Source: Eubacteriales bacterium
Lineage (GTDB): Bacteria > Bacillota > Clostridia > Oscillospirales > CAG-272
Direction of reading: 5' to 3'
NCBI GenBank assembly: GCA_045632105.1
Contig: JAZQVZ010000009.1
Span: 1 to 35,677 of the forward strand
DNA: 35,677 bases
Part shown: positions 2,831 to 34,461 of the stretch, one piece after another
Numbering within the stretch: the first letter of the stretch is position 1
Layout: each line of letters starts with the position of its first letter
Position numbers and translations under genes: made by a program
The notes under the pieces: model-generated
What the model was told of the DNA's origin: nothing
Database searches by the model: none
Seen by the model: only the letters and a program-made list of their open reading frames with translations

Positions 2831-2858
2831 TTGACAAAGAGAAATTTTATGATATAAT
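2831..2858 (+). promoter_or_regulatory. Sigma-A promoter for rplJ-rplL
   Basis: TTGACA-16 nt-TATAAT with an extended -10 TG and an AT-rich UP-like tract upstream. Confidence 0.8.
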
Positions 2859-2867
2859 ACTTGTGTT

Positions 2868-2990
2868 ATCCAAAGACAGCAGGTTCCCGTAAAGGCGCAA
2901 GCTTCCCTGCCGAGGAGATTTTGATCGCGAATATTTTTTCTGATCTTTCTTCTCGGGGTGCTATGCCTTTGGGAAGAAAGTTTTTTTATT
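2868..2990 (+). promoter_or_regulatory. Ribosomal protein L10 leader (autogenous attenuator)
   Basis: AAGACAGCAGG...CCTGCCGAGG core typical of the L10 leader, then a terminator-like hairpin CTTTCTTCTC...GGGAAGAAAG-T7 (2945-2987) upstream of rplJ. Confidence 0.8.
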
Positions 2991-3027
2991 TCCCGCTGTC
3001 AAGCAATTCTTATAGGAGGTAAGAACT

Positions 3028-27994: not shown

Positions 27995-29956
27995 TTATCT
28001 TACGCGCTCGCCAAGAGGCGTGTCGTCAGCCAAAAATACAACTCTTACCTGCTCCTCGCCGCTTGCAAGTATCATTCCCTCGGAATCGATACCGCAAAGC
28101 TTTGCGGGCTTAAGGTTAGCCACGATAATGACCTTCTTGCCGATAAGATCCTCGGGAGCGTAGAACTTAGCAATTCCCGATACTACCTGACGCTTCTCAT
28201 AGCCGAGGTCGAGCTGCAGACAAAGAAGCTTCTTTGCCTTGGGAACTCTCTCACAAGCGATTATCTTCGCGGTGCGGAGCTCAACGCCCATAAAGTCCTC
28301 GATACCGATAAGAGCGCAGCCCTCGGGCTTCTCCTGAGCCTTCTCAGCAGCCTCAGCAGCGGCTCTCTGAGCCTCCATCTCTGCCTCAAGCTCTGCCAGA
28401 AGCTTTGCCTCGTCGATTCTTGCGAACATTACGCGGGAATCTCCAACAACGCTTCCTGCCTTGATAGCGCCGAAGCACTCAGCAGTGCCGATAGTGTCAA
28501 ATCCGCAAGCGTCGGTAGAAAGCTTTTCAAGTATCTCTGCCGAGGTCTCGGGAATGATGGGCTGAAGCATTACAGCGCCCCAACGGATAGCCTCAAGCAG
28601 GTTATAAAGAACGGTGCCGAGTCTTTCCTTCTTATCCTCGTCCTTAGCAAGGGTCCAAGGTGTGGTTTCATCAATGTACTTGTTTGCTCTGATGAACATC
28701 TCGAAGATGCACTCGATAGCGTCTGCTATGCGGAAGCTGTCCATATTGGAGGTCATTCCGTTGTAAGCCGCAACGCAAGCTGCCTTCAGCTCGTCGTCAA
28801 GAGCCTCGGGAGCGGTGGGAGCCTGAACTACCTTATCGAAATACTTCTTCTGCATATCAAGGGTTCTCTTTACGAGGTTACCCATATTGTTTACAAGGTC
28901 GGTATTGAATCTCTTGATTACCGACTCGTAGGTAATGCTTCCGTCGGAGTTATAGGGCATCTCGGAGAGAGCGTAATATCTCACGCCATCAACGCCAAAT
29001 CTCTCTGCAAGAGCGTCGGCATAAATAACGTTTCCGCGGGACTTGGACATCTTCTCAACGCCGAAGTTGAACCAGGGGTGACCGAACACCTTCTTGGGAA
29101 GCGGAATATCAAGCGCCATAAGGAATATAGGCCAATAAATAGTATGGAAACGAAGAATATCCTTGCCGATAACGTGAACGTCGCAGGGCCAATATTTCTT
29201 GAAGTGCTCGGACTGCTCCTCGAAGCTCTTGTCGGGATCGTAGCCGATAGCTGTGATATAGTTGGTCAGCGCGTCAAGCCAAACGTAGGTAACGTGTCTG
29301 TCGTCGAAATCAACGGGAATACCCCACTTGAAGGAGGTTCTGGATACGCAAAGATCCTGAAGACCTGCCTTGAGGAAGTTGTTTACCATCTCCTTCTTAC
29401 GGGACTCGGGCTCGATGAACTCGGGATGATCTTCGATGTACTGCATCAGCTGATCGGCATACTTGCTCATCTTGAAGAAATACGCTTCCTCACTTGCCTT
29501 CTGTACGGGTCTGCCACAGTCGGGACACTTGCCCTCTGCCGCCTGAGTTTCGGTAAAGAAGGACTCACAGGGAGTACAGTACCAGCCCTCGTACTTGCCC
29601 TTGTATATGTCGCCCTTATCGTAGAATTTCTTGAATATCTTCTGCACTGCCTTCTCGTGGTAGTCGTCGGTGGTGCGGATAAAGTAATCGTAGCTGGTAT
29701 TCATCTTGTCCCAGATACCCTTTATCTCTCCCGCAACGCCGTCAACGTACTGCTTGGGGGTAATGCCCGCAGCATTAGCAAGGTCCTCGATCTTCTGACC
29801 GTGCTCGTCGGTACCCGTGCAGAAATATACGTCGTAGCCTCTGGCTCTCTTGTATCTTGCAACCGCGTCGGTCATAATGACCTCATAGGTATTGCCGAAG
29901 TGAGGCTTTCTCGACGCATAGGCTATCGCCGTTGTAATATAAAATTTCTCGTTCAT
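27995..29956 (-). CDS. metG: Methionine--tRNA ligase with C-terminal tRNA-binding domain
   Basis: FYITTAIAY, HIGH variant HFGN, GTDEHGQKI, Zn knuckle CTPC...CPDC, YVWLDAL, KMSKS, OB-fold RQVVSGIA. ATG at 29956. Confidence 0.97.
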   Translation of the reverse strand: MNEKFYITTAIAYASRKPHFGNTYEVIMTDAVARYKRARGYDVYFCTGTDEHGQKIEDLANAAGITPKQYVDGVAGEIKGIWDKMNTSYDYFIRTTDDYHEKAVQKIFKKFYDKGDIYKGKYEGWYCTPCESFFTETQAAEGKCPDCGRPVQKASEEAYFFKMSKYADQLMQYIEDHPEFIEPESRKKEMVNNFLKAGLQDLCVSRTSFKWGIPVDFDDRHVTYVWLDALTNYITAIGYDPDKSFEEQSEHFKKYWPCDVHVIGKDILRFHTIYWPIFLMALDIPLPKKVFGHPWFNFGVEKMSKSRGNVIYADALAERFGVDGVRYYALSEMPYNSDGSITYESVIKRFNTDLVNNMGNLVKRTLDMQKKYFDKVVQAPTAPEALDDELKAACVAAYNGMTSNMDSFRIADAIECIFEMFIRANKYIDETTPWTLAKDEDKKERLGTVLYNLLEAIRWGAVMLQPIIPETSAEILEKLSTDACGFDTIGTAECFGAIKAGSVVGDSRVMFARIDEAKLLAELEAEMEAQRAAAEAAEKAQEKPEGCALIGIEDFMGVELRTAKIIACERVPKAKKLLCLQLDLGYEKRQVVSGIAKFYAPEDLIGKKVIIVANLKPAKLCGIDSEGMILASGEEQVRVVFLADDTPLGERVR

Positions 29957-29991
29957 TTTATCACCTTCCAAAGTTTTTCACGTATTTAAGA

Positions 29992-31392
29992 TCAGCTCAC
30001 ACCGAAGCCCAGAAGAAGTCCCCAGGCAAGGCCGTAGTAGCTGAATACCGCCACCAGATCGTTCACCGTTGTTATCAGCGGTCCCGAAGCAATAGCAGGG
30101 TCTATTCCAAGTCGGTAGAAGCACATAGGTATTGCCGCTCCCGTAAAGCCCGATATCATCATAGCAAAGCAAAGAGCCGCGCCTACGCAGGTTGCCGTAG
30201 TAAAGGCAAGAGCCACGGGATGACCGCCTACCAACCACAGATATGCGCCAACTATAAGCAAAGAGAAAAGTCCGATAAGGAAGCCGTTGATAAGAGCAAC
30301 TCGGGTCTCCTTAAAGATAAGTCCCGCCTGCTTTCTCATGCTCATCTCCTCACCGCCAAGAGCGCGTACAGTCACCGCAAGTGACTGAGTTCCTACGTTA
30401 CCCGCCATTCCGAGTATCAGCGACTGGAATGAAACGATAATGGGAAGCTCACGTACCACACCCTCGAAAAGACCGACCACGGCAGAAACCGCAAGGCCAA
30501 GGAAAAGAAGGATAACAAGCCAAGGAATACGCTTGCTCATACTCTTGAGCATAGGCTCCTCTGCCTCCTCCTCGGAGGACAGCGCCGCCAGCTTCGCGTA
30601 ATCGTCACCGCGCTCGGCATCGACGATCTCGATGATATCCTTAGAGGTAATAACACCCAGAAGCTCGTTGTTATCAACAGACAAAACGGGGATCAAATCC
30701 TCGGAATATCCGCGCAGACGCTCGATGTTGTCGGATATGCTCTCGTTATCGTAAACGTAGGGGAACGTGGTGTAGATCAGCTCCTCAAGAGGCTTGTCGC
30801 TTCTCGCGATTATCAGCTCCTTAAGGTCGATAGTACCGTAAAATCCACCCTTTTCGTCCACTACGAACAGTGTGTATATATTGTCGTTGTCGGGAGCCTC
30901 GGATATGAGCGCTCTCATAGCCTGCTTTACCGACAGATCCTTCTTAATCGCTATGAAATTGGTGCTCATCACGCTACCAAATTCATCGTCGTCATAGGAG
31001 CGGATAAGCTCTATCTCCTCCTTGACCTCGTCCTCGATAAGCTCGAAGACCTCCTGTCTGACCTCCTCGTCAAGCTCCTCAAGGACCTCAGCCGCCTCGT
31101 CAGCATCCATCTGCTCGATAATGTCCGCAGCCTCGTCAGCGTCCATTTCCGAAAGGATCTCACCCGCATCGTCAGCGAAGGTGATGACGTCGGACATCGC
31201 CTCACTACCGAGAACTCTGTGAAGTCTGTCAAGCTCCTCGGGAGAAAGCTCCTCAAGGACTGCCGCAATATCGTTGTCGTGATAATCGGCGAGTATCTCG
31301 CGAAGGATCTCGTCGGTGTTATCACCTCTTATAGCAGAAAGTATGGCGGCTCTATAATTTCTGTCTTCAAGCTCGTAAATGTTGTTTTCCAT
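29992..31392 (-). CDS. mgtE: Magnesium transporter MgtE
   Basis: Acidic N domain, CBS pair, KRIPWLVILL, GMAGNVGTQS, GIDPAIASGPLITTVND. Confidence 0.96.
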   Translation of the reverse strand: MENNIYELEDRNYRAAILSAIRGDNTDEILREILADYHDNDIAAVLEELSPEELDRLHRVLGSEAMSDVITFADDAGEILSEMDADEAADIIEQMDADEAAEVLEELDEEVRQEVFELIEDEVKEEIELIRSYDDDEFGSVMSTNFIAIKKDLSVKQAMRALISEAPDNDNIYTLFVVDEKGGFYGTIDLKELIIARSDKPLEELIYTTFPYVYDNESISDNIERLRGYSEDLIPVLSVDNNELLGVITSKDIIEIVDAERGDDYAKLAALSSEEEAEEPMLKSMSKRIPWLVILLFLGLAVSAVVGLFEGVVRELPIIVSFQSLILGMAGNVGTQSLAVTVRALGGEEMSMRKQAGLIFKETRVALINGFLIGLFSLLIVGAYLWLVGGHPVALAFTTATCVGAALCFAMMISGFTGAAIPMCFYRLGIDPAIASGPLITTVNDLVAVFSYYGLAWGLLLGFGVS

Positions 31393-31441
31393 AAAAAATA
31401 ACCTCCCATCACACAGAAAGGAGGCGGAAAACCGTCAAGGG

Positions 31442-31549
31442 TCAGAGTAAACGACCCAAAGCAAGCATAACTCCGATAAACGCTCCGTTTCTATGTATTA
31501 AATTCGTATTCATAGTACACATATGACTACTACACCCGTCCGCGTTCAT
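31442..31549 (-). CDS. Putative mgtE leader peptide (35 aa, MNADGCSSHMCTMNTNLIHRNGAFIGVMLALGRLL)
   Basis: Translated by hand. SD GAGGTG lies 5 nt before the ATG at 31549; TGA at 31444-31442; located between the promoter and mgtE. Confidence 0.55.
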   Translation of the reverse strand: MNADGCSSHMCTMNTNLIHRNGAFIGVMLALGRLL

Positions 31550-31595
31550 CTCGTCACCTCGCTTTACAAAATAGTTAAAAATATCCTACCTTATC

Positions 31596-31624
31596 ATTAT
31601 ACCACAGCGTTTCCCACTTTTCAA
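31596..31624 (-). promoter_or_regulatory. Sigma-A promoter of the mgtE operon
   Basis: TTGAAA-17 nt-TATAAT with extended TG, about 200 nt upstream of mgtE. Confidence 0.75.
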
Positions 31625-31657: not shown

Positions 31658-31690
31658 AAAAAACAACGCTCCGCGTATCCGCAGAGCGTT
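31658..31690 (-). terminator. Terminator after rubredoxin
   Basis: Minus strand: AACGCTCTGCG-gata-CGCGGAGCGTT-GTTTTTT. Confidence 0.8.
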
Positions 31691-34167: not shown

Positions 34168-34405
34168 CGCTCCGCCTTCAAATCCTTGCGCAGAACTAAA
34201 AAATAACCGGCACCCTCACGGATGCCGGTTATTTTTGGCCTGCCCGACAGGATTTGGTCTCGCCTGCGGGCTCGGTCCCTCCGCGTTCTGACAGCCCACC
34301 GGGCTGTCATTCATTACGCTCCGCCTTCAAATCCTTGCGCAGAACTGAAAAAGCAACAGACCGCTTTTGCGGTCTGTTGCTTTTTGGCCTGCCCGACAGG
34401 ATTTG
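34168..34405. repeat. 149-nt-period tandem module downstream of tRNA-Arg that duplicates the tRNA 3' end
   Basis: Exact 30-nt repeat at 34168-34197 and 34317-34346; exact 25-nt repeat at 34232-34256 and 34381-34405, the second copy overlapping the tRNA 3' end. Confidence 0.9.
34347..34385 (-). terminator. Terminator after tRNA-Arg
   Basis: 12-bp stem GCAACAGACCGC/GCGGTCTGTTGC flanked by A5 and T5. Confidence 0.8.
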
Positions 34406-34461
34406 AACCTGCGACCTCAAGAGTCGGAGTCTTGCGCGCTATCCAGCTGTGCCACGGGCAG
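34385..34461 (-). tRNA. tRNA-Arg(CCG)
   Basis: Acceptor stem CTGCCCG/CGGGCAG, anticodon arm CAAGA-CT-CCG-AC-TCTTG, T-arm GGTTCAAATCC, encoded CCA. Confidence 0.97.

Follow-up and report, generated by a model that had tools for sequence, protein, structure and literature searches.

The mgtE leader in the window

The window, by which we mean the whole stretch of 35,677 nucleotides analysed here, encodes on its minus strand a Mg2+ channel of 466 aa, mgtE (29992..31392), identified by Pfam MgtE, MgtE_N and CBS domains. It is the sole MgtE match in the assembly, and no CorA was found in this assembly, which is 83% complete. The terminator of an upstream rubredoxin gene (31665..31690, minus strand) separates that gene from the mgtE leader. 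The leader starts from a sigma70-type promoter with an extended -10 element (TTGAAA, 17 nt, TG, TATAAT; 31596..31624, minus strand) that has 11 of 12 consensus matches. This promoter sets the leader length at about 200 nt, in agreement with the preliminary description of the locus. A similar promoter site lies at most 130 nt upstream of the corresponding reading frame in 19 of 24 leaders from the genus.

Within the leader is a short upstream open reading frame (uORF; 31442..31549, minus strand) of 35 codons, with its ATG at 31549 and its TGA at 31444-31442. Counterparts were identified before mgtE genes of the family and genus. The uORF is preceded by its own Shine-Dalgarno sequence (SD), GAGGTG (31555..31560, minus strand), confirmed by sequence check and kept in relatives. 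The predicted peptide contains a single acidic residue (Asp), no Pro and four Met codons, and the frame lacks the in-frame CGA codon that most relatives have. Codons 2-8 (31526..31546, minus strand), in which Asp4 stands amid small residues, form the proposed sensing segment. Their mean residue volume is 94, compared with a genome mean of 139, and is smaller than that of 99.7% of 878 gene starts.

Three predicted helices compete within the leader, all on the minus strand. Helix A (31401..31425), supported by folding, a terminator flag and the partner test described below, pairs 31425-31419 with 31407-31401 and masks the mgtE SD. Helix B joins a purine tract in uORF codons 18-23 (31481..31496), which acts as an anti-anti-SD, to the anti-SD tract at 31411..31426 over 15 bp with two bulges; the anti-SD tract thus serves both as the 3' strand of helix B and as the 5' arm of helix A. 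The uORF, its SD and these two helices had been proposed from inspection of the letters, and every coordinate agrees with the sequence. Absent from that first reading were helix C and a U-run after helix A. The 5' strand of helix C (31542..31564) consists of the uORF SD, the AUG and codons 2-3, and its 3' strand (31459..31483) of codons 23-31, overlapping the 5' strand of helix B. Six U residues (31393..31398) lie between helix A and the mgtE AUG, so that helix A is also flagged as a terminator-like hairpin.

The leader is more stable than shuffled versions of itself (z -3.4; 1 of 200 shuffles as stable), and the fold of the naked RNA is dominated by helix C, which masks the uORF SD and AUG. 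The Rfam comparison suggested in the preliminary description found no family at gathering score over the window leader, the enterobacterial mgtA leader included. The description had also noted the lack of an M-box, and there is no covariance-model match to one in the window. Nor was an M-box found in any of 101 genomes of the window's family, in a search whose controls matched B. subtilis and L. lactis.

Conservation of the uORF, its codons and its helices

A direct BLAST-type search with the leader DNA in 151 family genomes returned promoter-region or chance matches only, and mgtE was therefore used as the anchor for collecting leaders. We examined 70 family loci (30 + 40) out of 125 mgtE matches listed. 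Under a loose rule (an SD-led short ORF with an early Asp), 41 of the 70 mgtE genes qualified, as against 36 of 940 upstream regions in the window genome. Removal of one weak 12-codon match (L016) and addition of two leaders with Glu2 (L020 and L049) brought the family set to 42. The conservation called for in the preliminary description is thus seen in 42/70 family loci and 24/27 genus loci, although relatives in these counts are not independent samples. A strict rule kept 34 of the 42 family uORFs and 3 of the 940 control regions of the window genome. A third strict match, on contig C104 of that genome (around 1414, minus strand), was rejected due to a promoter-like site between ORF and gene; the genes there are two in tandem that resemble MgtC/SapB, as judged by eye from translation. 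The MgtE proteins themselves fall into two distant clades, with roughly 45-85% and 25-30% identity to the window protein, and the uORF occurs in 17/23 and 25/47 of their respective loci.

The conserved part of the uORF is its start, where an Asp at codon 2 or 4 lies among Gly, Ser, Ala, Asn, Thr and Cys. In the genus Asp is at codon 4 in 21 of 23 uORFs and at codon 2 in the remaining 2; Glu replaces Asp in three leaders. The motif M-N-x-D-x-x-S-S that had been expected to recur does not; kept instead are the early Asp, the small residues, AGT-encoded Ser and an in-frame CGA. Residues 2-8 fall below the 5th percentile of window-genome gene starts in volume in 93% of 101 uORFs, and Pro accounts for only 5 of 252 residues in codons 2-7 of the 42 family uORFs. 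Constraint is confined to the first 8-14 residues; length (16-55 codons) and C-terminus vary freely, and no conserved core was identified in the leaders past the SD and first codons.

Codon choice is strongly biased. Among family uORFs, Ser is encoded by AGT in 60 of 81 cases, against 7.3% genome-wide, and 30 of 40 Arg-bearing uORFs use CGA for their first Arg, against 9.7% of Arg codons genome-wide. CGA triplets in these uORFs are in frame 37 times and in the other two frames 4 and 12 times. The position of the codon ranges from 4 to 15 with the frame kept, and 19 of 24 genus uORFs contain it. An early CGA goes with a downstream anti-anti-SD in 8/8 leaders, and a late CGA with an upstream or overlapping one in 35/37. 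The bases of CGA show about the same frequency of pairing as those next to them (0.65, 0.57, 0.42). A frameshift site at CGA was considered and rejected, as the preceding codon varies. Matches to tRNA-Arg(ACG) were present in five of five relatives (three confirmed as tRNA-Arg(ACG) by ARAGORN), and no TCG tRNA was seen with the same pattern among the relatives examined. CGA is probably read by tRNA-Arg(ACG) through I:A wobble. This mode of decoding is slow, and with tRNA-Arg(ACG) apparently the sole reader in relatives, slow decoding of CGA in these uORFs is plausible.

The helices were evaluated by comparing the duplex formed by each strand with its own partner with those formed with partners from other leaders; this test was chosen because a MAFFT alignment of the clade leaders was out of register for pair counting. 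In the window clade (near-duplicates L224, L226, L230 and L243 left out), the leader's own partner was better in 16/16 cases for helix A, 16/16 for helix B and 14/16 for helix C. The covariation anticipated for helices A and B is thus borne out, and it extends to helix C. In a commoner importer subtype the anti-anti-SD lies within codons 3-12, rather than in a purine tract at about codons 18-23 as in the window clade, and the own partner was better in 81/84 and 75/82 comparisons. There, the synonymous third position of the Gly4 codon varies with the anti-SD base (30/37 versus 6/30). Since codons 3-12 pair with the anti-SD in this subtype, the peptide bias may in part follow from pairing. The steadiest element among 99 leaders is the helix hiding the uORF start, with z below -1 in 85. 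Near-duplicates L121, L169, L160 and L176 were dropped from the leader summary, and L037 (83 codons) was left out of folding. In the window clade, helix A begins 12-41 nt past the uORF stop in 20/20 leaders, and at least five of the last 8 nt are T in 20/20, compared with 60 of 1165 SD-led ORFs of the window genome.

Folding with parts of the leader masked by assumed ribosome footprints (nested folding, run without a shuffled-leader null) indicates which states are available. The naked window leader adopts the C + A fold, with P(A)=1. With the region from the SD to codon 5-12 covered, helix B forms (P(B)=0.6-0.9), and with the whole ORF covered P(A) returns to 1. A lone footprint at codons 4-10 produces no switch (P(A) at least 0.99). 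The earlier proposal that full translation means OFF and a ribosome held at the 5' end means ON therefore agrees with the models for the window and its clade where the whole 5' part is covered, and fails for a single ribosome at codons 4-10. For the window leader to be ON, helix C has to be broken, which requires continued cover of the uORF SD. Masking the start opens the mgtE ribosome binding site (RBS) in 16 of 20 leaders of the clade and closes it in one; in several of these the RBS is still costly to open in the modelled ON state. The same treatment opens the RBS in 6/6 compact genus leaders. These compact leaders (L231 and L233-L237) have 23-26 codons and a 32-46 nt spacer, and lack the terminator-like hairpin.

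The commoner subtype behaves differently. With no ribosome present its RNA is already relatively open; placing a footprint at CGA shuts the RBS in 68 of 84 leaders and frees it in 4, and covering the ORF shuts it in 66/84. When 41 family leaders were pooled, no single rule linking a stall to ON emerged (codon 5 versus naked: 19 open, 15 closed), because the two wirings were mixed.

Taken with its gene association, this pattern of conservation suggests that the mgtE leader is a real, conserved leader-peptide switch for Mg2+ homeostasis in Clostridia, and apparently an undescribed one. No description of it was found in the full-text literature searched, mostly open-access papers. One paper that covers C. 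difficile holds eight uORF candidates that may bear on novelty (PMC11109978).

Other genes that carry the uORF

A second uORF of this type was found in the window genome itself by the control scan. It lies on contig C21 (5109-5300, minus strand) before a CNNM-CBS-CorC gene, whose product has PDB 7M1T as its best match. This uORF has a GTG start, 20 codons, three Asp and CGA at codon 11, and a terminator starts at its stop. A genus pattern search, written with one codon too many, matched this CNNM copy only. Among CNNM loci, 20 of 62 carry the uORF (11/30 + 1/3 in the family, 8/29 in other clostridial families); among further fragments, 3/7 CNNM and 8/11 mgtE genes could be anchored. No Rfam family covers any of the 14 CNNM leaders scanned.

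The layout of the CNNM leaders is different. An intrinsic terminator starts inside the uORF or at most 12 nt past its stop in 18 of 20, and in the remaining two the uORF stop codon and the start of the gene overlap. With a terminator over the uORF end in CNNM leaders and helix A past the stop in the window clade, read-through should turn CNNM genes ON and mgtE OFF. An export function of CNNM-like MpfA in S. aureus has been described (PMC6711546), and by analogy the uORF-bearing CNNM proteins are putative Mg2+ exporters. Their wiring would then be inverted relative to that of the importers, as expected for an exporter. The contrast is not absolute, since a U-run hairpin close to the uORF stop is likewise present in 11 of 97 importer leaders, and 3/3 further mgtE leaders have one in or near the uORF. 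Acidic content also differs: codons 2-11 hold 2-5 Asp/Glu in CNNM uORFs and 1-2 in 61/63 mgtE uORFs. The CNNM uORF has the more Asp/Glu in 5/5 same-genome pairs, a count that leaves out L043/L265, which do not come from one genome. If correct, inverse wiring would show a way in which a Mg2+ exporter could be induced and would hint, independently, at the direction of CNNM transport; the opposite wiring of importers and putative exporters has the first claim to testing.

A motif scan of GTDB genomes (an SD followed by codons for M-D-[AT]-G-S) matched at least 120 stretches. Of the 120 listed, 40 had too little flanking sequence and 80 were classified. Among these listed matches, 64 of the 80 lie before mgtE (45), the Mg2+ P-type ATPase MgtA (15) or corA (4); 15, mostly non-clostridial, lack such a gene arrangement, and one is a family-type uORF whose downstream gene is unreadable. 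Because the scan pattern derives from mgtE leaders, its mgtE count carries some circularity, which the mgtA and corA counts do not; of the four listed corA matches, three have nearly the same sequence and the actinobacterial one may be unrelated. Hosts named in the scan include Oscillospiraceae, Lachnospiraceae, Acutalibacteraceae, Ruminococcus, C. difficile, Selenomonadaceae and Trichococcus. In the 64 transporter-associated leaders listed, found without requiring CGA, the triplet occurs 52, 13 and 8 times by frame, and 49 of the 64 have it in frame. The pattern does not match the window's own subtype, and the link between the two rests on shared position, SD, composition, CGA/AGT use, helix C and intermediate peptides.

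Among the listed matches, 20 loci were tested for an M-box, and 9 of them, including 7/7 mgtA leaders, have one just ahead of the uORF. Rfam searches of 40 related loci found only such upstream M-boxes or unrelated RNAs elsewhere in the locus. Tandem M-box and uORF arrangements before mgtA, mgtE or corA were observed in L141 (OX246690.1), L105, L107, L118, L123, L128, L136, L143 and L159, a set that includes a C. difficile chromosome. These tandem leaders would constitute two-sensor switches for one ion. For gut Clostridia in which no M-box was detected, such as the 101 family genomes searched, the uORF could account for the control of Mg2+ uptake.

Several individual loci have unusual features. 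The Mg2+ P-type ATPase of L105 has an N-terminal extension of about 165 residues that opens with Asn-Arg/Gly repeats. In L129 and L140 the uORF precedes a short MgtE without the N-terminal domain (match from near profile position 130). Similar 19-codon ORFs starting M-D-T-G-S-P-C occur in L175 (Pseudonocardiaceae), where the ORF lies before corA, and in L219. These are possibly a separate actinobacterial corA leader peptide.

A probable ribosome-read attenuator, its alternatives and its relatives

Every regulated gene identified belongs to a Mg2+-transport family (MgtE, MgtA, CorA or CNNM), and this gene context points to Mg2+ as the signal. Very probably, the leader is an attenuator of Mg2+ transport that is read by the ribosome. 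We lean, by a small measure, towards a version in which the ribosome drops off. The uORF would present the ribosome with Asp amid very small residues and, in most relatives, also with a slow CGA codon, which could pause the ribosome and so put it to the test. When Mg2+ is sufficient, the ribosome would clear the first 10-15 codons; at low Mg2+ it would abort early through intrinsic ribosome destabilisation (IRD), as for MgtL, and then re-initiate. In the window, repeated initiation and abort would hold helix C open, allowing codons 18-23 to capture the anti-SD in helix B and switch mgtE ON. Read-through would melt helix B, and helix A would then mask the mgtE SD, and probably also terminate transcription, switching mgtE OFF. 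In the commoner importer subtype, with its anti-anti-SD in codons 3-12, the gene would be ON once the ribosome is gone, and CNNM/CorB genes, with a terminator over the uORF end, would be ON only after read-through. A single rule fits all three wirings: passage of the first 10-15 codons signals high Mg2+, and early failure signals low Mg2+.

The preliminary description had proposed that the ribosome instead stalls in the first codons. A stable stall at low Mg2+, there or at CGA, would make the same attenuator work in the window clade, where the RBS opens in 16/20 leaders with the 5' part covered and in 11/17 with a footprint at CGA; it also suits the CNNM leaders, and slow reading of CGA by its apparently sole tRNA makes such a halt plausible. 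The sign is wrong, however, in the commoner subtype, in which a ribosome parked at CGA closes the importer RBS in 68/84 leaders, and the window leader fails to switch with a single ribosome placed at codons 4-10. Since ON in the commoner subtype needs the ribosome gone and a stalled one would switch it OFF, drop-off is favoured over stalling, which we consider unlikely. In the models, drop-off with re-initiation fits all three wirings, and stalling fits those of the window and CNNM leaders only.

Precedents for drop-off exist among enterobacterial leaders. Acidic and small N-terminal residues are reported to cause a Mg2+-sensitive abort in MgtL (bioRxiv 2021.02.02.429294; PMC11282234). The MgtL/mgtA leader of E. 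coli and Salmonella, as well as CorL/corA, resembles the window in that a short SD-led uORF with early acidic residues stands before a Mg2+ importer, helices compete and efficient translation is the OFF condition, the last predicted in silico for the window (PMC11552253, PMC11282234). The N-terminal EPDP/Pro-rich motif of MgtL and CorL is absent from the window peptide. The preliminary description took the lack of Pro as a difference from MgtL, a distinction that loses force given that MgtL sensing also rests on early acidic residues. Further differences lie in output, which here is a predicted SD-hiding, terminator-like hairpin and in MgtL, as described, Rho loading, and in the selected CGA and AGT codons, the clostridial hosts and the inverse CNNM wiring. 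Similar in logic is MgtQ, from the Salmonella mgtC-mgtB spacer, for which an Asp2/Glu5-dependent abortive uORF and a three-helix switch have been described: 1:2, 2:3 and 3:4 stem-loops free the transporter RBS, a three-state arrangement nearly the same as that in the window (PMC8092293). MgtQ differs in its 8 codons, intergenic position and enterobacterial host. The clostridial device would work like MgtL, CorL and MgtQ and falls outside them on motif and sequence.

Against the drop-off version are the lack of an in-frame CGA in the window uORF and the composition of its peptide, which falls well short of the four D/E/P in six N-terminal residues set by the published IRD rule (bioRxiv 2021.02.02.429294). 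The small residues associated with IRD in that source are seen in 93% of the 101 uORFs; the window peptide has one D/E/P residue, and Asp/Glu number 2-5 in codons 2-11 of CNNM uORFs. The peptides encoded before CNNM genes are very similar in composition to the Asp- and Ser-rich start of E. coli ybeX/corC, at which IRD has been proposed to let Mg2+ raise efflux-related expression (bioRxiv 2021.02.02.429294). As presented there, the ybeX segment is the start of the protein itself, whereas in Clostridia such a segment belongs to an independent uORF linked to a terminator or RBS switch.

Whether the output is translational, as originally proposed, or also transcriptional bears on how helix A is used. 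Masking of the mgtE SD by helix A supports the former, and the U-run in 20/20 clade leaders suggests that the output may also include termination. In B. subtilis, RNA polymerase is reported to outrun the ribosome (PMC9226507), so that control through a terminator needs a pause. The same work describes the vmlR leader, in which, as proposed here, a uORF drives attenuation through a terminator and SD masking; it differs in sensing antibiotics and in its dependence on NusG pausing (PMC9226507). In the window, metG starts about 20-35 nt after the mgtE stop (mgtE and metG together span 27995-31392, minus strand), an order also seen in G037, L229 and L230, and no promoter for metG was found in the last 700 nt of mgtE. 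This arrangement argues against strong termination in the window leader. Helix A may thus act mainly on translation in this lineage, and the essential synthetase gene metG may share the regulated mgtE transcript.

More tentatively, and with rather less than even confidence, we propose that one family of Asp/small-residue leader peptides forms a ribosomal Mg2+ gauge in many Clostridia, including C. difficile. It would be wired in three ways, with MgtE, MgtA and CorA importers, alone or behind an M-box, turned OFF on read-through and CNNM/CorB exporters turned ON. The number of Asp would set the threshold, and an in-frame CGA would act as a kinetic checkpoint at which a loosely held ribosome either stays intact or comes apart. 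On this proposal, exporters would open only at higher Mg2+ than that at which importers close, and graded Asp content would constitute a quantitative prediction. If it is true, ribosome-based Mg2+ sensing extends beyond enterobacterial MgtL, CorL and MgtQ.

We regard as improbable that the RNA itself senses Mg2+, in the manner of a riboswitch or a pseudoknot between the competing helices, with the uORF tuning the response or being a by-product of SD-mimicking purine tracts. The strong helix covariation speaks for such a sensor, the AGT and GGN codon bias suits the needs of pairing, and the strand order permits crossing helices, which nested folding does not score. However, there is no conserved core beyond the uORF start, CGA moves between codons 4 and 15 yet keeps its frame, Glu stands in for Asp in three leaders, and the anti-anti-SD moves while the peptide bias stays. 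The CNNM leaders, moreover, keep the peptide despite a different RNA layout. Other RNA elements are known before the same genes. The M-box (ykoK) riboswitch, RF00380, controls the same gene classes as an RNA-only sensor and is not present in the window. In mycobacteria, the M-box uORF rv1805A resembles the window in pairing SD, anti-SD and anti-anti-SD before Mg2+-uptake genes, and differs, as described, in being mycobacteria-specific, with a conserved Pro7, Rho-dependent termination and control by an aptamer (PMC12810186). With neither an M-box nor a Pro, the window leader belongs to neither type. A riboswitch candidate before mgtE, motif SRC-65-1, places the SD and AUG in a stem; its 32 representatives, described without mention of a uORF, are all from Thioalkalivibrio, a taxon that the window does not fit (PMC11109978).

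About as improbable is a ribosome-read attenuator that responds to another signal, such as tRNA supply (Arg-CGA or Ser-AGT), translation stress, pH or another cation. The strong selection of rare codons (CGA in 30/40 and AGT in 60/81, against 9.7% and 7.3%) is what such a signal would leave. All regulated genes identified, on the other hand, are Mg2+ transporters by family, and the element stands in tandem with the M-box. A route through TrmD and m1G37 at CGA was rejected, as the tRNA-Arg(ACG) matches in 5/5 relatives have A37 (by eye).

It is very unlikely that the peptide works in trans as a small membrane regulator of the transporter. In its favour, some C-termini are hydrophobic, and an exact look-up placed one of five peptides in a protein collection, where this corA-preceding member is called as a 35-aa hypothetical protein. 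Constraint on only the first 8-14 residues, with length and C-terminus free, speaks against such a role, and helix C explains the 3' half of the uORF. A methionine attenuator for metG can practically be dismissed: metG follows mgtE here and in three other genus genomes among the loci examined, and the window uORF has four Met codons, but Met codons are not conserved among genus uORFs, the same leader type precedes mgtE without metG behind it (L013, L014 and L017), and no T-box or S-box match was found.

Also present in the window are a match to the Rfam L10_leader (2852-2995, plus strand) and a tRNA-Arg(CCG) (34388-34461, minus strand) that has A at position 37, where G is expected in other bacteria.
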